Shown one piece after another: positions 10,755 to 29,125 of a DNA stretch of 58,514 nt. The notes beneath the pieces are model-generated. The model had not been told where the DNA came from, ran no database searches, and saw only the letters and a list, made by a program, of their open reading frames with translations. The position numbers were made by a program, and so were the translations under genes. The DNA lies in the NCBI GenBank assembly GCA_964537405.1, contig CAZIBS010000001.1, positions 2,035 through 60,548 on the forward strand, given 5' to 3'. Positions within the stretch are counted from its first letter, which is position 1. The number at the start of each line of letters is the position of its first letter. Source of the stretch: an uncultured Thermoanaerobaculia bacterium. GTDB taxonomy: Bacteria; Acidobacteriota; UBA4820; DSQY01.

Positions 10755-10779
10755 AGGCCTTCCTCTCGGAATAACGACG

Positions 10780-12604: not shown

Positions 12605-12781
12605 CCCGCGATTGATTTAAAAATTCGCCGCCGGGCGACGCTCCCACGAACAACGGTAATGTATTAACGCGACGTTACTTCGGCGCGATGGCCGGGAGGG
12701 CGCGGTGAGCCCCCATAACGGGGATAACACAACGCCGTGCAGGAACGCGATTCGGCCGCTACACGTGGATGACGGTCGTCG

Positions 12782-14113
12782 CTATCGTATGTCGTACTTC
12801 TTCATGCGGTAGAGCAGGACGTGGCGTGGAATCTTGAGGGCGCGAGCGGCGGCTGACTTGTTCCGGCCTTTTGCCTCCAGCGCATCCAGAATCGCCTTGC
12901 GCTCTATCTCCCACAAGCCGACCGGGCTACTCCCGCTCGCCGTACCACTTTTGCGAAATTCGGCCGGTAGAAGGTCCGTTGTTATCGTCCCGTCGGGATG
13001 AAGTACGGCCATCCGTTGGCAGAGGTTCTGCAATTCCCTCACGTTGCCGGGCCACCGGTAGTTCCTCATGCGCTCCTCCGCATCCGCGGTGAGTTCCGGT
13101 TCACCGCCTCCGAAGCGCCGGTAGAAGTGGGCGAAGAGCAGAGAGACGTCTTCGGGTCGCTCCCTCAAGGGAGGCATCTCTATGGGAATCACGTTCAGGC
13201 GCCAGAAGAGATCCTCTCTGAACGCACCCCCCCGAACGGCCTCACTCAGGTCTCGGTTCGTTGCGGCAACCACTCTTACGTCGACGGGACGCGAGGCGGT
13301 TGCGCCCACCGGATCTACGATCCTCTCCTGGAGCACCCGCAGTATCTTGGCCTGGAGTGAAGGCGCCATGTCTCCCACTTCGTCCAGGAAAATGGTTCCC
13401 CCGCCGGCCTGTTCGAACTTGCCCCTGTGGGAGCGGTGCGCGCCGGTGAAGGCGCCCCTTTCGTGGCCGAAGAGTTCGGTTTCCAACAGGTCCTTGGGAA
13501 CCGCCGCGCAATTCACCGCCACGAAGGGACCCCTGGCCCTGTGCGAGAGGGCGTGCAACGCGCGGGCGGCCAACTCTTTTCCCGTCCCGCTCTCGCCGGT
13601 GATCAACACGGTGGCTTCGCTGGGCGCAACGTGTTTTATGGCTACCATTGTCTCTCGGATGGCCCGGCTCGACCCCAGGAGGGAATCCTGGGGGCGCTTC
13701 TCCTCCAGCCGCTTCTTCAAACGCCTGTTCTCCAGGGCCAGGTTGTGAAGGTGAATAGCCTTCTTCACCGCCAGCAGCAGCGTCTCCCGCTTCACCGGCT
13801 TGGTCAGGTAATCCGAGGCGCCCAGGCGCATCGCCTCTACGGCGTCGCCTATGGAGCCGTAGGCGGTCATAACCACCACCGGCACCTGGAGCCCCTGCTC
13901 CATCACGGCCTTGAGGAGTTCCATGCCGTCCATCACCGGCATCCGGATGTCGGTGAGAATGAGGACGAAGGAACCGGAGACCAATGCCTTCAGGGCCGTT
14001 TTACCATCCGGTGCCGAGTCCACGCCGTAACCCTCTTTTTCAAGGTGGTAGGTTACGACACGGCGGAGGTTCCGGTCGTCCTCCACGAGGAGTATGCGAG
14101 CCGGTCGTTTCAT
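12782..14113 (-). CDS. Sigma-54-dependent response regulator (NtrC/ZraR-like)
   Basis: ILLVEDD, LILTDIRMP, GESGTGKE, intact GAFTGA, FLDEVGD, HTH. ATG at 14113 overlaps the kinase stop (ATGA). Confidence 0.92.
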   Translation of the reverse strand: MKRPARILLVEDDRNLRRVVTYHLEKEGYGVDSAPDGKTALKALVSGSFVLILTDIRMPVMDGMELLKAVMEQGLQVPVVVMTAYGSIGDAVEAMRLGASDYLTKPVKRETLLLAVKKAIHLHNLALENRRLKKRLEEKRPQDSLLGSSRAIRETMVAIKHVAPSEATVLITGESGTGKELAARALHALSHRARGPFVAVNCAAVPKDLLETELFGHERGAFTGAHRSHRGKFEQAGGGTIFLDEVGDMAPSLQAKILRVLQERIVDPVGATASRPVDVRVVAATNRDLSEAVRGGAFREDLFWRLNVIPIEMPPLRERPEDVSLLFAHFYRRFGGGEPELTADAEERMRNYRWPGNVRELQNLCQRMAVLHPDGTITTDLLPAEFRKSGTASGSSPVGLWEIERKAILDALEAKGRNKSAAARALKIPRHVLLYRMKKYDIR

Positions 14114-15189
14114 AGGGAACTCCCCTTTGCGTCCGCCCCGTTTCCCTGGACGGAGATATCCCCTTCGGGCGACCCCGGAAGCCACAAGGTGAAGCGGGAA
14201 CCTCCAGTGGGAAGCGATTCACCCCTAACCCAACCCCCGTGCGCTTCCGCCACCTGTTCAACCAGAGCCAGACCCAAACCGGTTCCATCCTTCCGCCGCG
14301 TGAAGAAGGGTTCGAAGAGTTTCTCCTCCTCGCCCTTCGGCAAACCGGGACCATGGTCCGTCACACCGATGAGGCATCCACCATCCGATCCACGTAGTTC
14401 CACCTCTACGCCGCCACCCTTCGGAGACGCTTGCACGGCGTTGCGCACCAGGTTCGTAAGTGCCTGATGGAGCCTGGCCAAATCCGCATAGAGGAGAGGA
14501 CATTCCTTCACCCCTGCGAGCACCAGTTCAACCCCCCTCTTGTGCGCAAATGGCTCAAGCGAGCGGAAACACTGAGCCACCACGTCGGTCGGGGAGAGAG
14601 GGGCGCATTCCACGGCGATGGGACGACCCAGGTCGAGAAAATCCCGCACTACTCCCTTCAATCGTTCGATCTCGTTGATGAGGATCTCGAAGAAGGGACG
14701 CCGCTTGTGGCCGGGAGGATAATCCTCCGCGAGAATCTCGGCCGCGCCCTGGATCGATCCGAGGGGAGTTCGCACCTCGTGGGCGATTCCCGCGGCCATC
14801 CTGCCGAGCGCCGCCAGTCTTTCGCTCTGCCTGAGCCTTTCCCGGAGCGCTTCCCCCTTTCTGTGCTCCGCGTCCTTTCTGTCCACCAGTATTCCCGCCA
14901 TGGCTCCTATTCCCAGGTAAAAGATGATCTCTATCATGTCCTTGTCCCCCCAAAACGGCCCGGTGTACAGCAACGCCAGGGGCAGGGTCGCCAGGGAAAT
15001 TACGCCCGATACGATAAGTCCTCCCCTGAGTCCGAACCAGAGAGCGCCGAGAATAATGGGGACGTAACATATGCGCCGATGGATCAAGTCCACCCAGGGT
15101 GGGTATGGCAGGAACATGTAGTGCAGGGACAGCGTGAAGGTCACTACTACCGTAAGAAATAGAAATCGCCACGAGTCTCTGCCCCGCAT
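14110..15189 (-). CDS. Membrane sensor histidine kinase (about 4 TM helices, no large periplasmic domain)
   Basis: ERLAALGRMAAGIAHEVRTPL, NLVRNA, DHGPG, GTGLGL; hydrophobic N-terminal ~100 aa. Confidence 0.92.
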   Translation of the reverse strand: MRGRDSWRFLFLTVVVTFTLSLHYMFLPYPPWVDLIHRRICYVPIILGALWFGLRGGLIVSGVISLATLPLALLYTGPFWGDKDMIEIIFYLGIGAMAGILVDRKDAEHRKGEALRERLRQSERLAALGRMAAGIAHEVRTPLGSIQGAAEILAEDYPPGHKRRPFFEILINEIERLKGVVRDFLDLGRPIAVECAPLSPTDVVAQCFRSLEPFAHKRGVELVLAGVKECPLLYADLARLHQALTNLVRNAVQASPKGGGVEVELRGSDGGCLIGVTDHGPGLPKGEEEKLFEPFFTRRKDGTGLGLALVEQVAEAHGGWVRGESLPTGGSRFTLWLPGSPEGDISVQGNGADAKGSSL

Positions 15190-15314
15190 CCTTCACCTCT
15201 TGAAGGGGTTCTCTTTGCAACTACCGCGCCAACCAATCCCTATCCACAGTATGCGTCCGCCACCCACTAAGCGCGCCTTCCGTGCCATACCCTTCAGGTT
15301 CGACCTTCTCCTAA

Positions 15315-15351
15315 GAGCAAAATGAAGAATATTGCACAACTCATTGTACAC
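15315..15351. promoter_or_regulatory. Candidate upstream activator site for the sigma-54 regulator
   Basis: Imperfect inverted repeat GAGCAAAATGA...TCATTGTACAC about 100-130 bp upstream of the -24 element. Confidence 0.3.
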
Positions 15352-15445
15352 TATCCTCCACTATTTCTCCAGCAGCAGAAAAAGAGGAGACCCTCCCGAA
15401 GCGAAGGCGGTTCCTTATTGCTTGCCAGAGCACCCTCTCGCGACA

Positions 15446-15462
15446 TTGGCACCCCTTATGCA
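15446..15462 (+). promoter_or_regulatory. Sigma-54 (-24/-12) promoter for the cusC-like operon
   Basis: TTGGCACCCCTTATGCA: GG at 15448-49 and GC at 15460-61 give the exact GG-N10-GC spacing; divergent from a sigma-54 activator gene. Confidence 0.75.
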
Positions 15463-15514
15463 ACGCCCCTCCCTCTATGCGCCACGGCGCACCATGGAGG
15501 ACCATCGGAGGACA

Positions 15515-16903
15515 ATGATGAAGAAACCATTTTCCACGTTGCTCGGCTTCTCTCTCGTCGTGATCGGTTTTTGCTGCAGCCTGGCCGTGCTTGGTCAAGA
15601 GCCGGTCTCACCGCTGCCGCCCATAGAGATACTCGTGCGGCGCGCGATGAAGCACAACCCGGGCTTGGAGGCCCAAAGGCGCAAAATCCTCGCGGCGCTG
15701 GAAGTGCCATCCCAGGCCGGAGCGTTACCCGACCCCGCCGCCGACCTCCAGTTCATGATGCTGCCCATGGATGGGGGCCTCAACGCCGACGATGCGCTCA
15801 CGAAAGGCGTATCTCTCGGAATCACCCAGCGTCTGCCCTACCCCGGAAAGCTGAAGCTGAGAAAACGGAAAGCCGAACGCCGGATCGACGTGGCCAGGAC
15901 CCAACTGAAGGCCATGGAAAGCAACCTGCGGGGCGAGGTAACCGGCGTTTCCTACCACTACGCTCTCTACCGGCGCCTTCTGGAGATCAACCGGAAAACG
16001 CAGGATGCCCTGGAAGCGGCGGCCAAGGGCGCGGCGGGTGTTTATGCCTCGGGCAATGGCAGCCAGACCGATGTGCTTCTCGCTCAGGCCGCGTTTACAA
16101 AAAACAAGGCCGACAGGAAAACCTTGAACAGGCAGCTTGAGGTTGCTCGCGCCCGCCTTGATGATCTGCTTGGCGGTCCTACCGATCCCGCCCTGCTCGA
16201 TCGGATCGCCATTCCCGAACCGGGCGACCCGCCAAGGCTGAACAGCCTTGTTAAAGACCTTCAGGATACCGCGCCCATGGTCCTGAAGGCGCAAGCCGAG
16301 GTGGCCGTCAGGGCGGAACAGGTCGCCATCGCGAAGAAGGATTTCAAGCCCGACTTCCTAGTGGGTGGACGGTACCGTCATAAGGATATGACCATGGGCG
16401 GTCGCGACTACCTCACGGCCATGGTCGGCATCACCCTTCCCTTCTTCCATCGGAAGAGCCGTTACCAGCCCGCGCTCCGTGAGGCCACGTACATGAGAGA
16501 GAGCGCCAGGGAGCAGGCCGGCGATGTTCTCAACGAGGCGCGGTACATGGTGACGGACGCCTACCAGACCGGCGTCCAGGACCGGGACGTCTACGCGCTC
16601 TACAAAAACGGTTTGTTGATCCAGGCAAAAAAAGCCTACGAGTCTTCGTTGGCTTCCTACACCGTCGGCGAAGTCGACTTTACGACCATGCTGAGGGCGC
16701 TCACCAATTATTACGCTTACGAATCCAGGGCCTTCATGGCCCGGGCGGACTACCAGGTATCCCTGGCCCGGATTGAAGCGGTACTCGGCCATACTTTCCG
16801 GATGAAGAAGAAGAGCGATCCGAGTGTAAGATCGATCAAGGATTTCCCGAAACCAGTGCCCCACACGGTACAGAAGCACCCTTTCCCAAAGGAGGAAAAA
16901 TGA
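15515..16903 (+). CDS. TolC-family outer membrane efflux protein (CusC-like)
   Basis: Signal peptide MMKKPFSTLLGFSLVV..., AGALPDP, ITQRLPYPGKLKLR, helical OMF repeats; GGAGG RBS before ATG 15515; first gene of the RND operon. Confidence 0.85.
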   Translation: MMKKPFSTLLGFSLVVIGFCCSLAVLGQEPVSPLPPIEILVRRAMKHNPGLEAQRRKILAALEVPSQAGALPDPAADLQFMMLPMDGGLNADDALTKGVSLGITQRLPYPGKLKLRKRKAERRIDVARTQLKAMESNLRGEVTGVSYHYALYRRLLEINRKTQDALEAAAKGAAGVYASGNGSQTDVLLAQAAFTKNKADRKTLNRQLEVARARLDDLLGGPTDPALLDRIAIPEPGDPPRLNSLVKDLQDTAPMVLKAQAEVAVRAEQVAIAKKDFKPDFLVGGRYRHKDMTMGGRDYLTAMVGITLPFFHRKSRYQPALREATYMRESAREQAGDVLNEARYMVTDAYQTGVQDRDVYALYKNGLLIQAKKAYESSLASYTVGEVDFTTMLRALTNYYAYESRAFMARADYQVSLARIEAVLGHTFRMKKKSDPSVRSIKDFPKPVPHTVQKHPFPKEEK

Positions 16904-17250
16904 CCATAACCGTTACCTGTCCCATGCACCCGGACGTAATAGCCGACAAGCCCGGTAAGTGCCCGAAATGCGGAATGTTTCTGGAGGCCAAAGCCATGAA
17001 AAAGACCTGCTACACCTGTTCCATGCACTCAGACGTGAAGTTGGATAAACCGGGCAATTGCCCAAAGTGCGGTATGCCCCTTGAAAAGAGCACCGAAGAG
17101 GTCGCCTTTCTCTACTCGTGCCCTATGCACCAGGACGTAATAGCCAACAAGCCCGGTAAGTGCCCGAAATGCGGAATGTTCCTGGAGGCGCATCCTACCG
17201 GCGCACCGCACCCGAAGGCCCATGACCACCCGATGGGTCATTGCTGCTGA
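16900..17250 (+). CDS. Small protein with three heavy-metal-binding (HMBD) repeats and a His/Cys-rich tail
   Basis: Three copies of C[PS]MHxDV..KPG.CPKCGM.LE; ends HPKAHDHPMGHCC; AAGGAGG RBS; no signal peptide. Confidence 0.85.
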   Translation: MTITVTCPMHPDVIADKPGKCPKCGMFLEAKAMKKTCYTCSMHSDVKLDKPGNCPKCGMPLEKSTEEVAFLYSCPMHQDVIANKPGKCPKCGMFLEAHPTGAPHPKAHDHPMGHCC

Positions 17251-17280
17251 TTACTACTTCGAGGGTTGGTGAAGAAGCAT

Positions 17281-17308
17281 GGGGGACGTCCGAAACGAGA
17301 CGTCCCCC
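17281..17308. repeat. Perfect 10-bp inverted repeat (stem-loop) between the HMBD gene and cusB
   Basis: GGGGGACGTC-CGAAACGA-GACGTCCCCC. Confidence 0.8.
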
Positions 17309-17333
17309 GACCCTTAACGAAGGAGGCACCCCT

Positions 17334-18770
17334 GTGAAGAGACTTCTTCTGATAGTGATTCCCGTCGTCCTGCTGGCATTCATACTCGGTCGGTTCACGG
17401 TGAAAAGATCGAATCCGGACGGCTCATCCCGTTCGGGCAAGGTCGCCGCCGCGGGAAACAATGCCCCTGAAAAGAAGGGGCGTAAGATCCTCTACTGGCG
17501 CGCGCCCATGAATCCGACCTACATCTCGAAGAAACCCGGCAAGTCACCCATGGGCATGGACCTGGTGCCCGTTTACGCGGAAGCGGTTTCCCCGAAACCC
17601 CGTCCCGCGCGGAAAGGCCAACGCAAAGTTCTTTACTGGCGGGCGCCCATGAATCCCTCCTACATTTCGAAGAAACCCGGCAAATCCCCCATGGGGATGG
17701 ACCTCGTTCCCGTTTACGCCGACCAGATATCTTCCGGTGATATCAAGATCAGCCCGACGGTCGTGCAGAACATCGGCGTTACGACCACCGAGGTAATAAA
17801 GAAACCCTTCTTCAGGACGATCAGAACCTATGGCACGGTCACCTGGAACGAGACCACCCTCGCGGCTATGAACACCAAGATCGGGGGCTGGATCGAAAAA
17901 CTGAACGTGAACGAGACGGGACAGATCGTGCGCAAAGGCCAACCCCTCATCTCGATCTATTCGCCCAAGCTCGTAGCGACGCAGGAGGAGTTCCTCGCAG
18001 CCATGGATGCGGCCCGGGCCCTCCAGAAGAGTTCGGACCCTACCGTGGCTGAGGGCGGTTCCCAGCTACTTGAGTCCGCAAGGCGGCGCTTGAAGCTGTG
18101 GGACATCAACAATGCCCAGATCAGGGAACTGGAACAAACGCGGAAGGTGCGTAAGACAATGATCCTTTATGCACCCATAAGCGGAATCGTTACGCACAGG
18201 GCCGTGGTCGTGGGTGATCACGTCCAGCCCGGCATGAATCTGGTCCGGATCGCGGCGCTCAATCCCATCTGGGTCATGGGGTCCATCTACGAACAGGACA
18301 TCCCGCTCGTCAAAAAGGGCATGAAGGCGGCGGTAACCTTTGACAACCTACCGGGGGAGACCTTTGAAGGCACCGTAGATTATGTCTACCCGTACGTGGA
18401 AGGCAAGTCGCGCACGGCGCAGGTCCGGATCAAGCTGCCCAACAAGAAAGGCGAAATTCTTCCCCGGATGTATGCCACCGTGCAACTTCGCGTGCCGGTG
18501 GCACCCGATGCCGTTGTGATTCCCAATAACGCTGTCATCCAAGCTTCTTCAACGGACAACGTGGTCTTTATCGCCGAAGGAAACGGCCGTTTCAGGGGCC
18601 GAAAGGTAGTCCTGGGCCCGGAGGGCGACAACAACATGGTGATGGTCAAGGCAGGACTCGAACCCGGTGAGCGCGTGGTCACCTCCGCCCAATTCATGCT
18701 GGACTCGGAGAGTCAGCTCAACGCCGCCATCCAAGAGATGCTGTCGCAAAAGAAAGCCGGGGATTCCTGA
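17334..18770 (+). CDS. cusB: CusB-like RND periplasmic adaptor with a duplicated metal-binding motif
   Basis: Two YWRAPMNP.YISKKPGKSPMGMDLVPVYA repeats; GWIEKL, YSPKLVATQEE, FMLDSES. GTG start after AAGGAGG. Confidence 0.88.
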   Translation: MKRLLLIVIPVVLLAFILGRFTVKRSNPDGSSRSGKVAAAGNNAPEKKGRKILYWRAPMNPTYISKKPGKSPMGMDLVPVYAEAVSPKPRPARKGQRKVLYWRAPMNPSYISKKPGKSPMGMDLVPVYADQISSGDIKISPTVVQNIGVTTTEVIKKPFFRTIRTYGTVTWNETTLAAMNTKIGGWIEKLNVNETGQIVRKGQPLISIYSPKLVATQEEFLAAMDAARALQKSSDPTVAEGGSQLLESARRRLKLWDINNAQIRELEQTRKVRKTMILYAPISGIVTHRAVVVGDHVQPGMNLVRIAALNPIWVMGSIYEQDIPLVKKGMKAAVTFDNLPGETFEGTVDYVYPYVEGKSRTAQVRIKLPNKKGEILPRMYATVQLRVPVAPDAVVIPNNAVIQASSTDNVVFIAEGNGRFRGRKVVLGPEGDNNMVMVKAGLEPGERVVTSAQFMLDSESQLNAAIQEMLSQKKAGDS

Positions 18771-21700
18771 TGCTTTCGCGCCTCATAGACTGGTCGCTTA
18801 AGAATCGCTACATGGTCCTTCTCCTCACGGCATTTTTCATCATCGCGGGCATCTGGGTGATCTACCACACGCCCGTGGACGCGATCCCCGACCTCTCGGA
18901 CACGGAGGTCATCATCTATACCAAGTACCCGGGTCAGAGTCCCCAGGTTGTCGAGGACCAGGTCACTTACCCGCTCACCACCGCCATGCTTTCCGTACCC
19001 AAGGCCACGGTTGTGCGGGGCTACTCCTTCTTTAACTTCTCGCTCGTTTACGTAATCTTCAAGGACGGGACCAACCTTTACTGGGCGCGTACGAGGGTTC
19101 TCGAATACCTCAACTACGTGACGCCGCAGTTGCCCAGGGGGATTGCGCCCCAACTCGGACCCGACGCCACCGGTGTGGGGTGGATCTACGAGTATGCGCT
19201 GGTGGACAAGACGGGGAAACACAACCTCTACCAGTTGCGATCGCTGCAGGACTGGTACCTTAGGTACCAGCTCCAGACCGTACCCGGCGTATCCGAGGTG
19301 GCGAGCATCGGCGGATACGTCAAGCAGTACCAGGTGGAACTCGATCCGAATAAGCTCGCCGATTACCACATCAGCCTCGAGCACGTGAAACACGCGATCA
19401 TGCAATCCAACAACGACGTGGGTGGCCGCGTCGTGGAGATGGCCGAAACCGAGTACATGGTACGAGGAATTGGATACATTAAAAGCCTTGATGATCTCAG
19501 GAAGATTCCAATCGGCCTGGACCCGGGCGGACGCCCCGTCCTTCTCAGCCAGGTGGCGAACATCCACCTAGGCCCCGAGCTGAGGCGCGGCCTGGCCGAT
19601 TTGAACGGGCAGGGCGGCGTGGCCGGAGGCATCATTGTCATGCGGGTCGGCGAAAACGCGCTCAAGACAATCGAAGCCGTGAAGGCCAAACTCGCGGCAC
19701 TCAAGAAGGGCCTGCCCAAGGGCGTCGAGATCGTCCCGGTTTACGACCGCTCCGGGCTCATCGAACGGAGCATCAAGTTTCTCAAGGATAAGCTCGTCGA
19801 GGAAATCATCGTCATTTCCCTCGTCTGCATCCTCTTTCTTTTCCACTTCCGCAGCGCGCTCGTGGCCATCATCATGTTGCCACTCGGGGTCATGGCGTCG
19901 CTGATCATCATGTATTTCCAGGGGCTCAACAGCAACATCATGAGTCTCGGGGGTATCGCCATCGCCATGGGCGCCATGGTTGACTCCGCCATCATCATGA
20001 TCGAGAACGCCCACAAAAAAATGGAGTACGGCTACGACAAGAAATACCACTGGGAGATCATCGGCGTTGCCGCCAAGGAGGTGGGTCCGACCCTCTTCTG
20101 GTCCCTGCTCGTGCTGACGTGCTCTCTCCTTCCCATCTTTACGCTGAACCAGCAGTCCGGCAGGCTCTTCAAACCGCTCGCCTTCACGATGACCTATACC
20201 ATCGGCTCCGCCGCCTTCCTGGCCGTCGTGCTGGCGCCCATACTTATGGGCTTTTTCATCCGTGGCCGGATCCGCCCCGACGTGGAAAATCCGATCACGC
20301 GATTTCTTATCTGGATATACCACCCTGTCGTGGACTGGGTTCTCAAGCATAGAAAACTCGTTCTTTTCATGGCAGTGTTGGTCATGGCCAGCGCCGTTTT
20401 TCCGTTCAAGCAGTTGGGTTCTGAGTTCATGCCTCCGCTGAACGAAGGAGACCTCGTCTACATGCCTACGACGCTGCCGGGAATTTCAATCGGAAAGGCC
20501 AAGCAGATACTCGAACAGACCGACCGCATCATCAAGACCTTCCCCGAGGTCAAGTCCGTCTTCGGCAAGGTGGGAAGGGCCAATACGGCCACCGATCCCG
20601 CGCCCCTCACGATGACCGAAACCACCATTCAGCTCCGGCAGGACAAGAGCTACTGGCGCAAGATCCACGTGGAAAGGTGGTACTCCTCCTGGGCACCGGA
20701 TTGGCTGAAGAAGCCGCTGCACCTGTTGTGGCCCGAAGAGCGGACGATCACCCAGAAGGAACTCATCAACAAGCTCAACCATGCTATCCATTTCCCGGGA
20801 CTCGTCAACGCATGGACCATGCCCATCAAAACCCGAATCGACATGCTGTCCACCGGTATTAAAACACCGGTCGGCATTAAGCTGCTCGGTCCGGACCTCA
20901 ATGAATTGGCCAAGCTCGCCAAGGAAGTGGAAGCCGCCGTCCGCAACATTCCCGGCACACGCTCGGTCATCGCGGAGCGGGTCATGGGCGGCTACTACAT
21001 GGACTACGACATCGACCGCACGGCCGCCGCCCGCTACGGGCTCTCGGTTCAGGCAATCGAGGACGTTATCGAATCGGCGCTCGGCGGGATGAACGTTACC
21101 CAGACCGTGGAAGGTCTCGAGCGCTACCCGGTCAACCTGCGCTACATGCGCGGCTACCGGGATAACGTGCAGGCGTTGAAGCGCGTGCTCATCCAGACGC
21201 CCACCGGCGCACAGATCCCGATCTCCGAAGTGACTAAATTCGTTATCCACCAAGGCCCGCCGGCTATAAAAACCGAAAACTCCAGGAAAACGGCCTGGCT
21301 CTACGTGGACCTGAATACGTCCGACATCGGCGGCTACGTGGCGCGAGCGCAGAAGATCGTGAACGCCAAGGTGAAACTCCCGGAACAATACAACATCGTC
21401 TGGAGCGGCCAGTATCGATATATGGAGGAAGCCCGCTCGCGGTTGGCCATCGCTATCCCGGTTACGCTCGTGATCATCCTGTTGCTGCTCTACTTCAACA
21501 CCAAGTCTTTCACCAAGGTAGCCATCGTCATCCTGTCCGTACCCTTCTCGCTTGTCGGTTCATTCTGGCTGCTCTACCTGCTGCATTACAACCTGTCCGT
21601 TGCCGTTTGGGTCGGGGTTATCGCCTTGGCCGGGCTCGACGCGGAGACCGGCGTAGTTATGCTGCTCTACCTCGAACTGGCCCACGCACTCTACAGCAAG

Positions 21701-22003
21701 CTGGGACGCATGAAAACCATCGGAGACCTCAGGCAGGCTATTTTTCACGGCGCGGTGACACGCATTAGGCCGAAGATGATGACCACGGGCGCCATCCTGG
21801 CGGGCTTGATACCCATTATGCACGGAACCGGGACCGGCTCCTCCGTCCTGAAGCGCATTGCGGCGCCCATGGTTGGCGGCGTCATTACGTCCCTGCTGCT
21901 AAATCTGGCGATCTATCCGGTGCTATATTACTACTTGAAGCGCCGACACCTGGATCCGTCGATGGAACCCACGTCCAACGAGGAAGTTCACGAAAGCAAT
22001 TAG
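18770..22003 (+). CDS. cusA: Cu(I)/Ag(I) RND efflux permease (CusA/SilA)
   Basis: DAIPDLSD, LGPDATGVGWIYEY; the three Met-containing motifs of the CusA Cu site are present (EGDLVYMP, PLTMTET, RIDMLSTG). Confidence 0.95.
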   Translation: MLSRLIDWSLKNRYMVLLLTAFFIIAGIWVIYHTPVDAIPDLSDTEVIIYTKYPGQSPQVVEDQVTYPLTTAMLSVPKATVVRGYSFFNFSLVYVIFKDGTNLYWARTRVLEYLNYVTPQLPRGIAPQLGPDATGVGWIYEYALVDKTGKHNLYQLRSLQDWYLRYQLQTVPGVSEVASIGGYVKQYQVELDPNKLADYHISLEHVKHAIMQSNNDVGGRVVEMAETEYMVRGIGYIKSLDDLRKIPIGLDPGGRPVLLSQVANIHLGPELRRGLADLNGQGGVAGGIIVMRVGENALKTIEAVKAKLAALKKGLPKGVEIVPVYDRSGLIERSIKFLKDKLVEEIIVISLVCILFLFHFRSALVAIIMLPLGVMASLIIMYFQGLNSNIMSLGGIAIAMGAMVDSAIIMIENAHKKMEYGYDKKYHWEIIGVAAKEVGPTLFWSLLVLTCSLLPIFTLNQQSGRLFKPLAFTMTYTIGSAAFLAVVLAPILMGFFIRGRIRPDVENPITRFLIWIYHPVVDWVLKHRKLVLFMAVLVMASAVFPFKQLGSEFMPPLNEGDLVYMPTTLPGISIGKAKQILEQTDRIIKTFPEVKSVFGKVGRANTATDPAPLTMTETTIQLRQDKSYWRKIHVERWYSSWAPDWLKKPLHLLWPEERTITQKELINKLNHAIHFPGLVNAWTMPIKTRIDMLSTGIKTPVGIKLLGPDLNELAKLAKEVEAAVRNIPGTRSVIAERVMGGYYMDYDIDRTAAARYGLSVQAIEDVIESALGGMNVTQTVEGLERYPVNLRYMRGYRDNVQALKRVLIQTPTGAQIPISEVTKFVIHQGPPAIKTENSRKTAWLYVDLNTSDIGGYVARAQKIVNAKVKLPEQYNIVWSGQYRYMEEARSRLAIAIPVTLVIILLLLYFNTKSFTKVAIVILSVPFSLVGSFWLLYLLHYNLSVAVWVGVIALAGLDAETGVVMLLYLELAHALYSKLGRMKTIGDLRQAIFHGAVTRIRPKMMTTGAILAGLIPIMHGTGTGSSVLKRIAAPMVGGVITSLLLNLAIYPVLYYYLKRRHLDPSMEPTSNEEVHESN

Positions 22004-22014
22004 TTGCCCGCCTC

Positions 22015-22057
22015 GGTTTCCCGGGGGCCGGAGTTCACTCCACGTCCCCGGGAAACC
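22015..22057. terminator. Long stem-loop immediately after cusA
   Basis: GGTTTCCCGGGG...CCCCGGGAAACC enclosing GGAG-TTCA-CTCC; no clear U-tract. Confidence 0.45.
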
Positions 22058-22099
22058 TTAAAGACGTGGTAACATGAAACCTTAAAGACGTGGTAACAT
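22052..22099. repeat. Exact tandem duplication of a 24-bp unit
   Basis: GAAACCTTAAAGACGTGGTAACAT twice (22052-22075, 22076-22099), just upstream of the P-II RBS. Confidence 0.9.
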
Positions 22100-22120
22100 G
22101 AGACCGAAAGGAGTGATACA

Positions 22121-22426
22121 ATGAAAAAGATCACCGCGATCATCCGCACGGACTGCCTGGAACCGGTTGAACGTGCCTTGCGGACTCTTGGAGTCGAAGG
22201 CATCAGCGTCAGCCGGGTCAATGGCTACGGCGAACACGCTCACTTTGCCAACAATGACTGGTTATGCACCCACGCCCGCATTGAGACCTGCACGGAGGAA
22301 GCCTTCACACAGGACATCGTAGATACCATCATGGATGCCGCTCATACGGGGAGGGCCGGCGACGGCATCGTGGCCGTTCTTCCGGTTGAGCGATTCTTCA
22401 AAGTGCGTGAGCAGCGTGACGGCTAA
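22121..22426 (+). CDS. P-II family protein, metal-efflux-associated type, copy 1
   Basis: MKKITAIIR, GYG, HTGRAGDG; short T-loop lacking the uridylylated Tyr. Confidence 0.88.
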   Translation: MKKITAIIRTDCLEPVERALRTLGVEGISVSRVNGYGEHAHFANNDWLCTHARIETCTEEAFTQDIVDTIMDAAHTGRAGDGIVAVLPVERFFKVREQRDG

Positions 22427-22439
22427 AAGCGCAAGGTTA

Positions 22440-22517
22440 TTCGATTACCCTTGCCCGATGCACCCGGAGATTCAACAGGGTTACCCCGCGTCGATCGGGC
22501 CGGGAGGCGCAGCATGA
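22440..22517 (+). pseudogene. Relic half of an HMBD motif
   Basis: Reads FDYPCPMHPEIQQGYP... with no second CxxC; its stop overlaps the next ATG (ATGA). Confidence 0.5.
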
Positions 22518-23662
22518 GCCCGCGCGATGAGCTTCACATCGTCGGCGCCGGACCGGCCGGGCTCGCCGCGTCCATTACCGCGGCACGGGCCGGAGTCGCC
22601 GTCGTCGTCCACGAGAAGGGACACGACGTAGGACGCAGGTTCCACGGAGATTTCCAGGGGCTGGAGAACTGGACATCCTCCATGGACATCATCACCGAGA
22701 TCAAGTCTATGGGGATCGAGCCCAACTTCGACCACATCCCTCATTACAATCTGGTCTGCTTCGATCCTTCGGGGCGCAAACTGGCCGCGGGTTCTTCCCG
22801 GCCGTTGTACTACCTCGTTCGACGCGGTACCGAGCCGGGAACTCTCGACCGGGGGCTCCTTCAACAAGCGCTTGATCTCGGTGTCGAGGTCCGATTCAAG
22901 GACCGTGTCGATGGTATCCCCGGAGGGGGAATCGTGGCAACGGGACCGCGCGCCGTGGATATCATCGCAGTGGGCTACCTTTTTGAGACCAACGCTGAAA
23001 ACGGCTCCTACGTGGCTATCGACCGCAATCTGGCTCCGGGAGGGTATGCTTACCTGCTCATCCATGAGGGGCGGGGTACCGTTGCCACTTGCATGTTCGG
23101 GGACTTCCACCAGGAAGCGGTATACTTGGAACGAACCATCTCTTTCTTCACCTCGTCTCTTGATCTGCGACTCCACAACCCGCGCCGTTTCAGCGGCTAC
23201 GGCAACTGTGAGATTCCTCAAACCGCGGTTCAAGGCAAGATGACCCAGGTTGGAGAAGCCGCCGGTTTCCAGGATATGTTGTGGGGTTTTGGGCTCCGGT
23301 ACGCTCTCACTTCCGGTCATATGGCAGCCCAAGCGGTTCTCACCGGTTCGCAAGCAACCTACGACAAGCTGTGGCGACTTCGGTTCGCGGGCCAGATGCG
23401 GGCCGCCACAGTCAACCGCTTCCTCTTTAGGTTGGCGGGACATCAAAGCCTATCGTGGTTCCTTGGCCGGGTCGCAGCCAAGGGGGATCCACGTGTGAGC
23501 TTGCATCGACTCTACGCTTCTTCGGCGTGGAAGACGGCATTGTACCCGGTGGTTGGCAGGTACGTAAAAAGCCGTCGCCGCCACCACGAATGCCTCGAGC
23601 CCGGCTGCAATTGCACGTGGTGCCGGTGTCAGCACCACAGTGAGTTCATGGAGGAGGTGTGA
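22514..23662 (+). CDS. NAD(P)/FAD-dependent oxidoreductase (geranylgeranyl-reductase-like) with a Cys/His-rich C-terminus
   Basis: IVGAGPAG, APGGYAY, VGEAAGFQD; tail HHECLEPGCNCTWCRCQHH; GGGAGG RBS before ATG 22514. Confidence 0.8.
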   Translation: MSPRDELHIVGAGPAGLAASITAARAGVAVVVHEKGHDVGRRFHGDFQGLENWTSSMDIITEIKSMGIEPNFDHIPHYNLVCFDPSGRKLAAGSSRPLYYLVRRGTEPGTLDRGLLQQALDLGVEVRFKDRVDGIPGGGIVATGPRAVDIIAVGYLFETNAENGSYVAIDRNLAPGGYAYLLIHEGRGTVATCMFGDFHQEAVYLERTISFFTSSLDLRLHNPRRFSGYGNCEIPQTAVQGKMTQVGEAAGFQDMLWGFGLRYALTSGHMAAQAVLTGSQATYDKLWRLRFAGQMRAATVNRFLFRLAGHQSLSWFLGRVAAKGDPRVSLHRLYASSAWKTALYPVVGRYVKSRRRHHECLEPGCNCTWCRCQHHSEFMEEV

Positions 23663-23666
23663 AGCC

Positions 23667-23888
23667 GTGAGCATCCTCTTGGATAATTGGCTCTTTCTTC
23701 TCATCATTGCTCTCTGCATCGGGATGCACTTCTTCCACGGCCATGGTCATGGGGACGGAAACGGCACAATGAACGGTGCGGGGGATGAAATCCGGTCGCG
23801 GAGGCAACCTTACACCAACCGTCGGACGGGCCGGAGAAGCCGAACTCGGTTCCGAGCCGAATGGTCAAGAAGGCGCCAGGGGCTGTGA
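23667..23888 (+). CDS. DUF2933-like small His-rich membrane protein
   Basis: WLFLLIIALCIGMHFFHGHGHG; GTG start after GGAGGAGG; the C-terminus may be degenerate. Confidence 0.6.
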   Translation: MSILLDNWLFLLIIALCIGMHFFHGHGHGDGNGTMNGAGDEIRSRRQPYTNRRTGRRSRTRFRAEWSRRRQGL

Positions 23889-23919
23889 GGGGCTCCGGCG
23901 GGCTTTGCCCGTGCGTCTT

Positions 23920-23988
23920 GGCGCCATTTTGTCCGGCTTGGAACCGGTAGGCGCCGGTTCCTCCATCCTGAAGCACATTGCGGCGCCA
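23920..23988 (+). pseudogene. Degenerate copy of a 3' segment of cusA
   Basis: GAILSGL...GSSILKHIAAP versus CusA GAILAGL...GSSVLKRIAAP; the DNA aligns by eye to about 21788-21867. Confidence 0.7.
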
Positions 23989-24058
23989 CGTATGATATAA
24001 TTCATAGTGAACCCGGTGGATCGGCGTCAGCCGCCACCCATTGAAAAGGAGGTAAATC

Positions 24059-24739: not shown

Positions 24740-24889
24740 AGCGCCGGTTCCATGCCAATGCCGGCTGGGCGAAACACAGGTTTTTCCAACCGGCCGGTTC
24801 GGGGCATAAGCGATGATGAGTTGTGGTTCCGAAATGGGTTGGATGTGGATATGGCCGGTGGCGGAGGGCCTTCAGCCTGGCTCGTCACG

Positions 24890-25048
24890 GACCCCGTTTG
24901 CGGGATGAAGATCGACCCGACCCTCGCAGGCGCCAAAGTCGAGTGCATTTGCGCCGTGTGTCTGGAGATTGTCCGTGACGAGCCGGGGAACCGTCCCATC
25001 TGCGGCATGGCTTTGGAACCCCGTACCATTTCGATTGAGGAGGAGTGA
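24890..25048 (+). pseudogene. Internally deleted, degenerate copy of the copA 5' region
   Basis: [10 protein letters not shown] joined to [39 protein letters not shown]; matches copA at about 25456-25485 and 25787-25906. Confidence 0.75.
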
Positions 25049-25053
25049 ATAAA

Positions 25054-25359
25054 ATGAAAAAGATCACCGCGATCATTCGCACGGACTGTCTGGAACCGGC
25101 TGAACGCGCCTTGCGGACTCTTGGGGTTGAAGGCATAACGGTAACCAGGGTTAAGGGATTCGGTGAACACGCAAATTTTTTCAGCAGTGACTGGTGCTGT
25201 ACCCACGCCCGCATCGAAATCTACACGGAGGACTCTCTTGTACAGGACATCGTAGACACTATCATGGATGCCGCTCATACGGGGAGGACCGGCGACGGCA
25301 TCGTGACCGTTCTTCCGGTTGAGAGATTTTTTAAAGTGCGTGAGAAGCGTGAGGGTTAA
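25054..25359 (+). CDS. P-II family protein, metal-efflux-associated type, copy 2
   Basis: Same length (306 nt) as copy 1 and highly similar; loop reads GFGEHANFFSSDWCCTH. Confidence 0.88.
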   Translation: MKKITAIIRTDCLEPAERALRTLGVEGITVTRVKGFGEHANFFSSDWCCTHARIEIYTEDSLVQDIVDTIMDAAHTGRTGDGIVTVLPVERFFKVREKREG

Positions 25360-25428
25360 AAGCGCAAGAACTTTCGATTAAGGCTGACCCTTGCCGTTCG
25401 GAGTTCTGAAACGCTACGGAGGTTCAAA

Positions 25429-27909
25429 GTGAGCACAAATTCAATGCGCGGGATAGACCCCGTTTGCGGGATGAAGATCGACCCTGACGCCACCGAATAC
25501 AAGCTCGAACACGGCGGAGCCGTGGTTCACTTCTGTTCGACACACTGCCTCGAGAAGTTCCGGGCGGACCCCGGGAAGTACGCGGTGGAGAGTTCCACGG
25601 CCGAAAGTTCCGGAGCCGAAGCGGTGAAGCCGGAGGACGACGATAAAAAGAATGCGAGTTGCCTGGTCTGCGAGGTGCCGCCGCTGGTGGAGTACACCTG
25701 CCCGATGCACCCCGACATACGTTCCGACAAGCCAGGCGCCTGCCCCAAGTGCGGCATGGCACTGGAACCGGTCGCCGCGGCTCCCGGAGGCACCAAGGTG
25801 GAGTACACCTGTCCCATGCACCCGGAGATCGTCCGTGACGAGCCGGGGAGCTGTCCCATCTGCGGCATGGCTTTGGAGCCTCGCACCATTTCGGTTGAAG
25901 AGGAGAATCCCGAACTCAAGGATATGCGTCGCAGGTTCTGGGTGAGCCTGGCCCTGTCGGTGCCGGTGTTCCTGATCACCATGGCTGATCTGGTACCGGG
26001 TTTGAGGGGTGTCAACTGGCTTACGGCGCATGCGCGGATCCTCATTCAGCTCGGGCTCGCCACCCCTGTTGTCCTCTGGGGAGGCTGGCCGTTCTTCGTC
26101 CGTGGCTGGCAATCCATCGTCAACCGTTCGCTCAACATGTTCACGTTAGTCGGCCTTGGAACGGGTGTGGCCTATATCTACAGCCTGATCGCCGCCCTCT
26201 TCCCGGGGATCTTTCCGCCGTCCTTCCGTGGCGCGGAGGGTACCGTGGCCGTCTACTTTGAAGCCGCGGCGGTGATCGTGACCCTTGTCCTGCTAGGCCA
26301 GGTTCTCGAACTCAAGGCCAGGAGCCGGACCGGCGCGGCCATCAAGGCTCTTTTGGGCCTGGCTCCCAAAACGGCCCGCAGGATCGAGGAGGACGGCACC
26401 GAGGCGGACGTTCCGCTCGACCAGGTCCAGGTAGGCGATCGGCTTCGGGTGCGTCCCGGCGAGAAAATACCGGCGGACGGTATCGTTCTCGAAGGCATGA
26501 GTTCGGTGGACGAGGCTATGATTACGGGCGAACCCCTGGCGGTCACGAAGAAGTCCGGTGACCACGTCATCGGAGCCACCATTAACCGTACGGGCTCCAT
26601 GGTAATCAGCGCCGAAAAGGTGGGTGCGGACAGCCTCTTGTCCCGGATTGTCCAGATGGTGGCCGAGGCCCAGCGAAGCAGGGCGCCGATCCAAAAACTG
26701 GCGGATTCGGTGGCCGGGTACTTCGTGCCGGCCGTGATTGGCGCCGGCGTCATCACCTTCATCATCTGGGGGTTGTGGGGCCCGGACCCGCGGATGGCCC
26801 ACGCCCTGATCAACGCCGTTGCCGTTCTGATCATCGCGTGCCCCTGCGCCTTGGGTCTGGCGACTCCCATGTCCATCATGGTGGCCACGGGCAAGGGCGC
26901 AACCGCCGGGGTTCTGTTCAAGAACGCCGAGGCGATCGAGGTGATGCGCAAGGTGGATACCCTGGTAGTGGACAAGACGGGCACCCTCACCGAGGGAGCC
27001 CCACAACTCCAAACCGTGCTTTCCCAGGGCAAGCTTGCCGAGAACGATTTCCTGGCCCTGGTGGCCGGGCTTGAGCGCGGGAGCGAGCACCCCCTCGCCG
27101 AAGCCATCGTGAAGGGTGCAACGGACCGGGGTGTCGTGTTGGAGAAGGCCTCCGATTTCGACTCTATCACCGGCAAGGGTGTCACGGGCACCGTGGCAGG
27201 CCGTGCCGTCGCCGTGGGGAACCGGGCCTTGCTGGAGCAGATCGGTGCTGATGCAAAACCCCTGGCGGGGACCGCGGAGCAATTGCGGCGCGAAGGTCAG
27301 ACCGTGATGTTTGTGGCCGTAGACGGAGAGGTGGCCGGTCTCGTCAGCGTGGCCGATCCCGTCAAGGAAAGTTCGCCGGAAGCCATAGAAGCCTTACACA
27401 AGGAGGGCCTGAGAGTTGTGATGCTTACCGGCGACAGCAAAACAACCGCCGAGGCGGTGGCGCGGAAGCTCGGAATAGACGAGGTTATCGCCGAGGTCCT
27501 GCCCGATCAGAAGGCCGAAGTTGTCAAACGTCTGCAGGGCGAGGAGCGGATCGTGGCCATGGCCGGAGACGGGATCAACGACGCCCCTGCCCTGGCCCAG
27601 GCTCAAGTGGGTATCGCCATGGGCACCGGTACCGACGTTGCCATGGAAAGCGCCGGGGTGACCCTCGTCAAGGGAGACCTCCGCGGGATTATTCGCGCTC
27701 GCCGCCTGTCGCGGGCCACCATGCGCAACATCAAGGAGAATCTCTTCTGGGCTTTCGCCTACAACAGTATTGGCATCCCCATCGCGGCCGGCGTTTTGTA
27801 TCCCTTCTTCGGCCTGCTGCTGTCGCCGATCATCGCCGCCGCCGCAATGAGTTTCAGCTCCGTTTCGGTTGTTGGTAACGCCCTACGGTTGAGAAGAGTC
27901 CATATCTGA
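25429..27909 (+). CDS. copA: Cu(I)-translocating P1B-type ATPase with YHS and two HMBD domains
   Basis: DPVCGM...FCS..C (YHS), YTCPMHP twice, [22 protein letters not shown]...MSFSS. Confidence 0.95.
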
Positions 27910-28020
27910 ACAGGGATATCCCGGTTGCAGGCCGGCCTCGTATTCAGCGACAACGGGGTGGTACGGGTCATCCCGGTAAAAATAACGCCGGGTCCGGGAA
28001 TCTTATTAAGGAGCGGCGTC

Positions 28021-28698
28021 ATGGGTCAACGACAAAAGAAAAAAGGGTCGGCCCACTCTTCCGCAGACAACGACAGTGTCGACCGCAACGAATGGGGACG
28101 GCTCACGGGATGGCTCGTGGTGCTCGCTGTTGTTATAGTGGCCGTCGGAACGATGGTCCTGATCGTTCGGAGCCGTCCATCGAAAGTTATCAACAAGCCT
28201 CGGGTGGCGGTCCGGAACGATGTTTTAGCGGCCGAAACGACCGATCCGAGGATGGAAGAGGTGGAACGAACGCTCTTCTGCCCTTGTGGGAACTGCAACC
28301 TCAAGCTGAGCAAGTGCACGTGCGACAACGCCAACGGTGCGCTTGAGGTGAAGAAAACCATCGTTGCCCTGCTCGAGAGCGGCCTCGATGTAAAGGCCGT
28401 GGCGGCAACGTTGTCCAGCCGGTTTCCCGGTTCGTTGCGGAATACGAAAACGACCCCGGAGGTTGTTGAGCAGCCGATGGAGACCGCTTCCGGGGACTCG
28501 TTCGCCGCCGTCGTGGCTAAGCTCCACTGTTTGTGCGGCAACTGCCGGAAGCTCCTGGCAGAGTGCGAATGCGCTCACCGGAACGGGGCCATCGAGGTTA
28601 AGACGTTCATCAAGAAGCGACTGGCGGAGGGTTTCAGCGGTTCCGACGTGCTGTCGGCGGTGAAGCGAGTGTACGGGAGCCGTTTGTTTCATCCGTAA
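28021..28698 (+). CDS. Membrane-anchored protein with two Cys-rich CcmH/NrfF-like domains
   Basis: One TM helix, then LFCPCGNC.....KCTC and LHCLCGNC.....ECEC, each followed by helices ending L.[SE]G...[RV][FY].G; AAGGAG RBS before ATG 28021. Confidence 0.6.
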   Translation: MGQRQKKKGSAHSSADNDSVDRNEWGRLTGWLVVLAVVIVAVGTMVLIVRSRPSKVINKPRVAVRNDVLAAETTDPRMEEVERTLFCPCGNCNLKLSKCTCDNANGALEVKKTIVALLESGLDVKAVAATLSSRFPGSLRNTKTTPEVVEQPMETASGDSFAAVVAKLHCLCGNCRKLLAECECAHRNGAIEVKTFIKKRLAEGFSGSDVLSAVKRVYGSRLFHP

Positions 28699-28723
28699 AA
28701 CCGAAAACGAAAGGAGATATGCC

Positions 28724-29125
28724 ATGGATGTCAAGTACGCAATTGTCAGGGAGTTACATGACCTGGGATACGCCGAGGCTGTGGAACGAACCGTCGAGCT
28801 TCTCAAGAACGAAGGCTTCGGGGTCTTGACCGAGATCGACGTCAAGGCCACGCTGAAGTCCAAGCTCAACCTGGACTTCAAACGCTACGTAATTCTCGGC
28901 GCCTGCAACCCAACCTTCGCCCACCGGGCTCTGGCCGAAGAGCCGCTCATCGGTGTTTTCCTGCCGTGCAACGTTATCGTGATGGAACGCGACGGTGGAG
29001 GAAGCGTCGTAGCCGCCTTCAAGCCAACGGTCGGTTTCGCGCTGGTGAATAACCCCAATGTTGCTCCCATCGCCGAGGAAGTCGAGGAGCATCTCAAGAG
29101 GGCGCTGGACGGGCTGGGGGGGTAA
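28724..29125 (+). CDS. DUF302 domain protein
   Basis: GFGVLTEIDVKATLKSKL, YVILGACNP, IGVFLPCNVIV. Confidence 0.88.
   Translation: MDVKYAIVRELHDLGYAEAVERTVELLKNEGFGVLTEIDVKATLKSKLNLDFKRYVILGACNPTFAHRALAEEPLIGVFLPCNVIVMERDGGGSVVAAFKPTVGFALVNNPNVAPIAEEVEEHLKRALDGLGG

Follow-up and report, generated by a model that had tools for sequence, protein, structure and literature searches.

Organization of the copper/silver region

We analysed a 58,514-nt stretch of DNA (hereafter the window) from an uncultured Thermoanaerobaculia bacterium of the Acidobacteriota (assembly GCA_964537405.1, contig CAZIBS010000001.1, positions 2,035 to 60,548 of the forward strand). Positions 12782–29125 of the window hold a copper/silver region in which a sensor histidine kinase and an NtrC-type response regulator, both on the minus strand, diverge from a long run of plus-strand genes. 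This run begins with cusC, a small gene for a triple-HMBD protein, cusB and cusA, and continues through two PII-like genes, a flavoprotein gene, several small or unusual genes and copA to a gene of the DUF302 family (Table 1). Judging from the sequence, it is quite probable that the region would hold the one recognisable system for Cu(I)/Ag(I) export in this genome and that a dedicated sigma-54 two-component system would switch it on.

The host genome assembly (2.26 Mb in 160 contigs) is 97.7% complete. Genes were called from an open reading frame (ORF) listing together with Pfam and NCBIfam profile scans of the window proteins. The scans confirmed every gene named in an original prediction for this DNA, which had described a sigma-54-controlled copper/silver island with an unusually large set of accessory proteins. 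Its run of genes held up as listed, except that a 98-amino-acid (aa) ORF between the Met-rich gene and the second PII gene had been overlooked. The kinase stop and the activator start overlap as ATGA. The activator frame is open from 14185 and its relatives align from MKRPARILL; the ATG at 14113 is the probable start.

Predicted divergent promoters and a conserved pair of palindromes

The region between the kinase gene and cusC contains two -24/-12 sigma-54 promoter motifs, one for each direction. Both have the -24 GG and the -12 GC at a 10-nt spacing and lie upstream of their target genes, about 55 nt from the start of cusC and about 27 nt from the start of the kinase gene. The cusC promoter had been predicted at 15446–15462; the motif is present, with its coordinates corrected here to 15447–15462. 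Transcription is predicted to start near 15473 on the cusC side and near 15205 on the kinase side.

Because the count in the window alone is not above chance (12 matches to the -24/-12 motif at up to two mismatches, against 22 expected), we drew the significance of the motifs from their conservation in relatives. Full-length kinase orthologues (tblastn identity 50–66%), present in most genomes of the same family, were fetched at eighteen related loci. The promoter comparison used eighteen intergenic regions, namely that of the window and those of seventeen of the eighteen loci (L041, from another family, has no cus genes and was omitted), again at up to two mismatches and with expectations taken from shuffles. 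On the correct strand, the motif was found in fifteen of the eighteen regions on the cusC side (0.21 expected) and in eleven on the kinase side (0.22 expected). The wrong strand gave four of eighteen on the cusC side (0.22 expected) and two of eighteen on the kinase side (0.18 expected).

The intergenic spacer is otherwise poorly conserved among the relatives. In an alignment of thirteen intergenic regions, strong conservation outside the promoters is confined to one block, made up of two 16-bp palindromes with 23 bp between them and a loose consensus of TG-N5-TAT-N4-CA, near TGTAGAATATTCTACA. They stand roughly 105–112 bp from each -12 element and are likely to be binding sites of the activator. 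The predicted layout is that of a classical enhancer-binding activator serving two divergent promoters, with autoregulation. The genome also encodes the sigma factor itself, with rpoN on contig C75 (PF04552, 202.9 bits, 485-aa open frame), and has twelve strong sigma-54 activator matches. The conserved promoter pair, the conserved palindromes, the GAFTGA-bearing activator and the genomic rpoN together support the earlier proposal that the Cu/Ag export cluster is under sigma-54 control.

The -24/-12 motif might instead be a chance match, with the operon read from an ordinary sigma-70 promoter. The lack of enrichment in the window is compatible with this, and a sigma-70-like hexamer pair does lie on the minus strand at 15371–15343. 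Set against it are the recurrence of the cusC motif at the same position and strand in fifteen of eighteen regions, where only 0.21 would be expected, its place in otherwise unconserved sequence, the nearby GAFTGA activator and a genome with rpoN. We consider a chance match extremely unlikely.

Four loci from one genus of the family (L036–L039) have a different arrangement. Here the cusC motif on the plus strand is overlapped, face to face and with a 12-nt offset, by a -24/-12 motif on the minus strand, and no motif stands close to the kinase gene. The kinase operon of that genus may thus have a rearranged promoter.

Within the copper operon, the intergenic gaps contain no intrinsic-terminator-like site on the plus strand and no additional -24/-12 match. 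Gene spacing and the lack of terminator-like sites point to co-transcription from cusC to the DUF302 gene. It had also been stated that CusRS, CueR and CsoR, which control the model systems, are absent. None of these gene types is present in the island, and CsoR was not found in the genome. For CueR the statement is limited to the island, because a MerR-family gene on contig C16 scores 102.5 bits against the CueR model, under the cut-off of 147.4.

Table 1. Features of the copper/silver region. Positions are those of the window.
Feature	Position	Strand	Evidence
NtrC-type enhancer-binding response regulator (REC, sigma-54 AAA+, lid, HTH_8)	12782–14113	-	PF00072, PF00158 (234 bits), PF25601, PF02954; GAFTGA in translation
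Sensor histidine kinase	14110–15189	-	HisKA and HATPase_c; 23-homologue alignment; hydropathy
-24/-12 sigma-54 promoter motif TGGCGCGGTAGTTGCA, kinase side	15216–15231	-	Motif scan and conservation
Upstream palindrome 1, TGAAGAATATTGCACA, candidate activator site	15323–15338	.	Conserved block, 13-region intergenic alignment
Upstream palindrome 2, TGTACACTATCCTCCA, candidate activator site, 23 bp past palindrome 1	15346–15361	.	Same 13-region alignment
-24/-12 sigma-54 promoter motif TGGCACCCCTTATGCA, cusC side	15447–15462	+	GG 15448–15449, GC 15460–15461
cusC-like outer-membrane factor, signal peptide	15518–16903	+	PF02321 (OEP), 132 bits
116-aa protein, three HMBD domains and His-rich tail	16900–17250	+	PF19335, 125 bits, three stretches
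cusB-like adaptor, membrane anchor, Met-rich N-terminal metal motif twice; start codon uncertain	17241–18770	+	PF16576, 258 bits; PF19335 twice
cusA, Cu(I)/Ag(I)-type HME-RND pump	18770–22003	+	TIGR00914, 1147.8 bits (cut-off 701)
Perfect 24-nt tandem repeat GAAACCTTAAAGACGTGGTAACAT, two copies, filling the spacer between cusA and the first PII gene	22052–22099	+	DNA repeat search
PII-like protein 1, PII-NG type	22121–22426	+	PF00543, 62.8 bits (cut-off 25)
HMBD-domain scrap (DYPCPMHPEI...), outside any gene	22443–22493	+	59% to CopA residues 125–141
Geranylgeranyl-reductase-like FAD/NAD Rossmann protein, C-terminal C-x4-C-x-C-TW-C-R-C tail	22514–23662	+	Pfam/NCBIfam, family alignment, AF2 model
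DUF2933 small membrane protein, HGHGHG run	23640–23888	+	PF11666, 25.8 bits (cut-off 21)
cusA 3'-end remnant	23920–23988	+	63% over 27 aa to CusA residues 1007–1033; DNA repeat
Met-rich, Lys-rich protein, 226 aa	24059–24739	+	Composition, repeat search, hydropathy
98-aa ORF, probable decayed copA N-terminal chimera	24752–25048	+	65% to CopA residues 106–159
PII-like protein 2; probable start ATG 25054	25045–25359	+	PF00543, 65.4 bits (cut-off 25)
copA, P1B-1 Cu(I)/Ag(I) ATPase	25429–27909	+	TIGR01511, 616.6 bits (cut-off 397); PF04945, PF19335
Membrane-anchored tandem CcmH-like Cys-rich protein	28021–28698	+	Weak CcmH match; AF2 fold
DUF302 protein	28724–29125	+	PF03625, 84.3 bits (cut-off 23)

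A sensor kinase with four predicted membrane helices

By Pfam, the kinase consists of HisKA and HATPase_c only, with no HAMP and no periplasmic domain, and its hydropathy profile predicts four membrane helices with loops of about 8–11 residues. Across 23 kinase homologues there is no variation at T19, H23, Y24, H37, R39, C41, Y42 and P44 and almost none at H34. Homologues of the kinase that carry names are from metagenome-assembled genomes of Acidobacteriota. If the N-terminus is inside, the conserved residues would be placed between helices 1 and 2, at the periplasmic face, and we infer that Cu(I) or Ag(I) may be sensed directly at a His/His/Cys site there.

The two-component system could also answer a different signal (Au, Zn, Cd, envelope or redox stress), with the Cu/Ag pumps as mere outputs. 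The kinase has no known metal-sensing domain, some of its homologues carry only the generic membrane domain DUF4118, and its best NCBIfam matches, ZraS and AtoS, are both far under their cut-offs. In addition, the best-known sigma-54 metal system is ZraSR, whose response is to zinc and heavy metals according to the available part of a published survey (PMC12316311). What speaks for copper or silver is that all the conserved output genes are of Cu(I)/Ag(I) type, that the kinase and activator stay paired with cusCBA-copA across the family, and that the invariant His, His and Cys are soft-metal ligands. We regard another signal as improbable and favour a Cu(I)/Ag(I) sensor.

Copper and silver pumps

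CusA aligns to the E. coli CusA structures at 1173 bits, and in the alignment to 3t51 a Met stands at all three positions of the methionine triad, which we take to be M573, M623 and M672 in E. coli. The CusB-like adaptor scores 227 bits against NF007303, below the cut-off of 390. The translation of CopA contains CPC, YN and MSFSS; CPC, YN and MxxSS are the membrane motif set of P1B-1 Cu(I) ATPases. It scores 661 bits against the E. coli CopA equivalog NF007952, below the cut-off of 1316, and a YHS domain and two HMBD domains replace the HMA domain at its N-terminus. From these profiles and motifs, the pumps are assigned to the Cu(I)/Ag(I) type. A tblastn search of the genome with the island proteins identified no second copA and no second CusA-type pump (others are at most 24% identical).

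The triple-HMBD protein has no signal peptide evident in its translation, and an equivalent ORF lies between cusC and cusB in eight related loci. No island ORF gave a Pfam match to the CusF family; some Cus systems are without CusF.

Comparison with related loci

The kinase–activator pair is divergent from cusC in sixteen of the eighteen related loci, and in L040 copA intervenes. L026 ends at a contig edge after the HMBD ORF. Among the nine loci with sequence available downstream of cusA, seven have copA after it. On this gene-order evidence, the core of regulators, cusCBA and copA is common across the family. PII, the flavoprotein, DUF2933, the Met-rich protein, the tandem Cys protein and DUF302 gave no tblastn match (E 1e-8) in any of the eighteen loci. 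With none of these six accessory families present in the relatives, the accessory set is indeed unusually large, as had been claimed.

In L042 (genome G022), the cusA match at 9975–13211 breaks into four pieces that lie in different frames, and the match to the kinase breaks into two. Such breaks hint at decay of the whole system in that genome or at errors of assembly.

The 3.4-kb interval between cusA and copA contains three scars (the HMBD scrap, the cusA 3' remnant and the 98-aa ORF). In the 98-aa ORF, the start of the copA YHS domain is joined to the end of the second HMBD, and CPMH has become CAVC with the metal ligands lost; it is probably a gene remnant. The pumps also differ in their nearest relatives. 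The cusA protein is 88% identical to that of G001, a genome of the same genus, and 59% to that of G776, from another family of the phylum. For copA, the corresponding values are 63% and 77% in protein and 67% and 75.7% in DNA. The operon of G001 consists of cusCBA, a 935-aa copA and then a PF13442 cytochrome c (L025 5060–5866). The cluster of G776 has the order cusB-cusA-PII-MetRich-copA-tandem-Cys, as in the window. Given the recombination scars and these identity patterns, the accessory genes appear to have been grafted in. The simplest reading is that the regulators and cusCBA are native and that recombination with foreign Cu modules replaced or extended the right-hand part. The single island of the original prediction thus stands as a Cu gene cluster and falls as one island, since it would be a family core with foreign accessory genes acquired by recombination.

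A neighbourhood survey, proposed along with that prediction as a check on the accessory genes, found that they do co-occur with Cu exporters in other lineages. This bears on whether the accessory genes are hitch-hikers brought in by recombination, with promoters of their own or silent and in some cases decaying, the complete Cu system then being an insertion accident. Scars and a decayed copA fragment do lie among them, no accessory gene is present in the eighteen related loci, the PII pair is a recent duplicate (84% DNA identity), the Arg-rich tail of the DUF2933 ORF is odd, and the G776 module works without this regulator. The accessory genes are nevertheless all intact, co-oriented and tightly spaced, with no terminator-like site in the gaps, and they retain conserved motifs in family alignments. 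The same families also stand beside cus/copA elsewhere (L074–L076, L055, L069, L071), and this recurrence in other lineages argues for selection. An insertion accident is, in our view, unlikely, if deserving of serious thought; we prefer grafted genes that have been retained alongside the pumps.

Relation to described systems

The closest precedent that we know for the regulator is CorSR of Myxococcus xanthus, a copper-linked kinase and sigma-54 activator that controls copA (PMC3707914; this and the following statements refer to the available part of that paper). The likeness extends to a regulator with REC, Sigma54_activat and HTH_8 domains, a copA with YHS and putative -24/-12 promoters, and the curA cluster of that species has a PF13442 cytochrome c after copA, as does the same-genus relative G001. 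CorS, however, has a periplasmic sensor domain and a HAMP domain, whereas the kinase described here has neither and has four predicted membrane helices. The curA cluster also includes a multicopper oxidase and, as described there, no cusCBA, and its regulators lie inside the operon, in contrast to the divergent regulators with shared upstream sites found here.

With ZraSR (E. coli/Salmonella, Zn/Pb) the region shares divergent sigma-54 promoters, a kinase with an NtrC-type activator, and predicted autoregulation; in place of a periplasmic chaperone, it has pumps as outputs. The sensing part of ZraS is a periplasmic domain. Membership of ZraSR was rejected on the NCBIfam equivalogs, with 198.3 bits for ZraS (cut-off 479) and 370.9 bits for ZraR (cut-off 760).

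The pumps themselves resemble E. coli CusCFBA (3K07, 3T51, 3NE5), with a CusA bearing the three methionines, a CusB-like adaptor with a Met motif and an OEP factor. They differ from CusCFBA/CusRS in having a sigma-54 activator rather than an OmpR-type CusR, no CusF, an HMBD triplet between cusC and cusB, a doubled CusB metal motif and copA in the operon. As judged from sequence, the system is one that works like CorSR and ZraSR without belonging to either, and a genuine Cus/CopA system with an unusual regulator and accessory load.

A literature search, mostly at the level of result listings, returned no description of a sigma-54-controlled cusCBA-copA operon in Acidobacteriota, of the Cys-tailed flavoprotein or of the tandem CcmH-like protein. 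Neither 'Acidobacteri' nor 'copper' occurs in the available text of a 2025 survey of sigma-54 regulons (PMC12316311). CorSR and PII-NG are known precedents for a system of this kind.

PII-like proteins, Met-rich protein, DUF2933 and DUF302

The two PII copies are 80% identical in protein and 84% in DNA, and tblastn of the genome found no PII-like gene beyond them. PII homologues adjoin cusA in other lineages. Genes of this kind beside metal RND pumps are already known as PII-NG, for example GSU2134-czcABC of Geobacter sulfurreducens (available part of PMC7726332, citing Sant'Anna et al. 2009). Like PII-NG, the window copies are small PF00543 proteins encoded beside a heavy-metal RND pump, one of them directly after cusA. 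They differ in being two (after cusA and before copA), in accompanying a Cu/Ag-type pump rather than Czc, and in having Cys in the T-loop region. Such Cys residues are present in both copies (DWLCTH in 22121–22426, DWCCTH in 25054–25359) and absent from six homologues at other loci. Small YHS-domain ORFs directly follow PII in L075 (16525–17199) and L076 (9526–9777), which are Cu clusters of other Acidobacteriota families, and one L075 YHS ORF also has an HMBD. In the window, the second PII gene is directly followed by the YHS-bearing copA.

The Met-rich protein has 33 Met among its 226 aa and a signal-peptide-like N-terminus. Its gene contains an internal 219-nt tandem duplication with 95% identity between the copies. 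A single-repeat homologue (42%) lies between P-II and copA in L074, and a Protein Atlas search gave nothing above threshold, its weaker matches being to unnamed proteins some 150 aa long. In the DUF2933 ORF, an odd Arg-rich tail makes up the C-terminal half. The DUF302 gene adjoins copA in three of four loci from other phyla, among the matches listed.

Tandem CcmH-like protein

This protein has an N-terminal membrane anchor and two repeats, each with the pattern C-x-C-x2-C-x6-C-x-C. Only two relatives of near its length were found among 5.8 billion clustered proteins; the wider family has 186 representatives at E 1e-3 among 1.84 billion proteins. Pfam CcmH is matched by seventeen of 23 family members, and the window protein scores 19.9 bits, under the cut-off of 25. 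Its AF2 model (pLDDT 81) has the CcmH structures 2kw0 and 2hl7 as top PDB matches, with a Foldseek probability of 0.99 and weak E-values, and the repeats align to CcmH structures with a TM of 0.59–0.64 on target.

Each repeat shares the CcmH fold, and a CxxC is retained. The differences are the tandem domains with five Cys each and the location of the gene in Cu/Ag clusters rather than ccm operons. The three best relatives of the protein are all within cusA/PII(/copA) clusters, one of which, L074, has the order cusB-cusA-PII-MetRich-copA-CcmH-like. Eight weaker matches that were fetched are not in cusA/PII clusters, and two of them are ordinary CcmF-CcmH fusions. Membership of CcmH proper was rejected on the score below the Pfam gathering threshold and on the placement of the three closest relatives in cus/copA clusters, not in a ccm context. 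In a survey of 401 genomes of the phylum (a tally that includes one unpublished genome), 48 had a CcmH-like match at 1e-8; apart from the host genome, none of the 24 family members did.

Cys-tailed flavoprotein

The flavoprotein belongs to a large unnamed family, with 2695 matches among the candidates scored, in which the C-terminal Cys cluster is invariant. Its AF2 model (pLDDT 85.5) is nearest in fold to the geranylgeranyl-reductase (GGR)-like protein Ta0516 and to Sulfolobus GGR, with the GGR-like 3oz2 as the best PDB match (E 1.2e-16, TM 0.69); flavin halogenases also match, including the brominase Bmp2 (5bva). Assignment to the geranylgeranyl reductase family by TIGR02032 was rejected, as the score of 45.7 bits does not reach the cut-off of 158.8.

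No flavoprotein was found in twenty family relatives. In four loci from four other phyla, among the matches listed, it lies within 10 kb of copA every time, and the tail was seen in three of the four. In a proteobacterial class, it is present in 30 of 401 genomes. Twenty of these proteobacterial loci were fetched, and ten have copA, cusA, PII or small HMBD/YHS genes within about 9 kb, including two with contiguous FAD-cusC-cusB-cusA-PII runs. Two results weigh against a universal link to copper. The other ten proteobacterial loci have no Cu gene among the queries used, and 300 other genomes of the phylum gave eleven distant matches, all without the Cys tail and none near copA. Ten neighbours from eight of the ten Cu-gene-free loci include a fatty-acid cis/trans isomerase, a cyclopropane-fatty-acid synthase, a LolA-like protein, PPK2, a sulphur transporter and a CBS protein.

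As a conjecture to which we give little credence, the Cys-tailed flavoprotein (tail C-x4-C-x-C-(T/V)W-C) might be a widespread, unrecognised enzyme of Cu/Ag defence. Cu(I) bound to the tail would activate a reductase that saturates double bonds of membrane isoprenoids, quinones or unsaturated lipids, which would hold down both peroxidation and the redox cycling driven by Cu. This enzyme, PII-NG, the Met-rich protein and the five-Cys CcmH-like protein would then make up a portable accessory kit that couples Cu/Ag efflux to membrane and redox protection. The hints are that the nearest folds are lipid and isoprenoid reductases and that the gene recurs beside cusCBA, PII and copA. A further hint comes from the fatty-acid isomerase and the cyclopropane synthase, two of the ten neighbours scanned at the Cu-gene-free loci.

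Proposed mechanism

In the model that we favour, the membrane-embedded kinase would detect Cu(I) or Ag(I) at the periplasmic face through H23, H37, the near-invariant H34 and C41, and would phosphorylate the NtrC-type activator. The activator would then bind the two 16-bp palindromes midway between the divergent -24/-12 promoters and drive sigma-54 RNA polymerase both ways, into the kinase–activator operon (autoregulation) and into a cusC–DUF302 unit of about 13.7 kb. CopA would export cytoplasmic Cu(I), fed through its YHS and HMBD domains and probably also by the free triple-HMBD protein, and CusCBA would expel Cu(I) and Ag(I) from the periplasm. The accessory proteins would have joined later, drawn from a set of genes that accompanies Cu pumps in other phyla. 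Among them, the pair of PII-NG proteins would probably modulate pump activity, and the place of CusF would probably be taken by the Met-rich periplasmic protein, as a sponge or carrier for Cu(I)/Ag(I). Since it retains CxxC, the CcmH-like protein probably takes part in periplasmic thiol redox or Cu(I) binding. Gene content, metal-type signatures, conserved promoters and palindromes, synteny and mosaic origin can be read from the sequences; the inducer, the sensing site, co-transcription and every accessory function in this model are what we infer, and the same applies to the 'buffering' and 'redox' roles and to the 'complete' system of the original prediction.

Several points weigh against the model. 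The kinase has no recognised metal-binding domain, and the His/Cys site and its periplasmic-face placement are read from the hydropathy plot and nothing else. At up to two mismatches, the cusC-side motif is missing from three of the eighteen regions and the kinase-side motif from seven; the shuffle test also overstates independence, because the related loci are kin and so are non-independent trials. Internal promoters could lie in the 118-, 171- and 70-nt gaps of the operon, and the sub-cut-off CueR-like MerR gene (102.5 bits) could also act on copA. Finally, no orthologue of the kinase or of the activator was found in G776, nor, upstream of its cusC, a -24/-12 motif with one mismatch or none, and Pfam scans of ten neighbouring ORFs gave nothing useful about the regulator of its cluster. 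Because this closest analogue of the accessory module is without both regulators and motif, the accessory genes would not depend on sigma-54.

The region would offer a concrete regulatory design for Cu/Ag resistance in Acidobacteriota, a major and little-studied soil phylum, with a candidate new type of membrane-embedded sensor, two predicted activator sites and two predicted sigma-54 promoters. It is also a probable example of a conserved core operon extended by the grafting of accessory genes that circulate among phyla. Three unnamed families (the Cys-tailed flavoprotein, the five-Cys tandem CcmH-like protein and the Met-rich periplasmic protein) become approachable through their association with Cu/Ag pumps, and the PII pair adds further cases to the question of what PII-NG proteins do beside metal pumps.

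Sequence around the region

The region is flanked by an acyl-CoA dehydrogenase gene and a nucleotidyl transferase gene, and its GC content is similar to that of the flanks. Rfam and tRNA scans of the region gave no match, and no island border of tRNA or integrase type could be recognised. A second sigma-54 activator gene (234 bits to PF00158) lies upstream of the copper region, at about 4268–4768 of the window (G000:C1:6302-6802).

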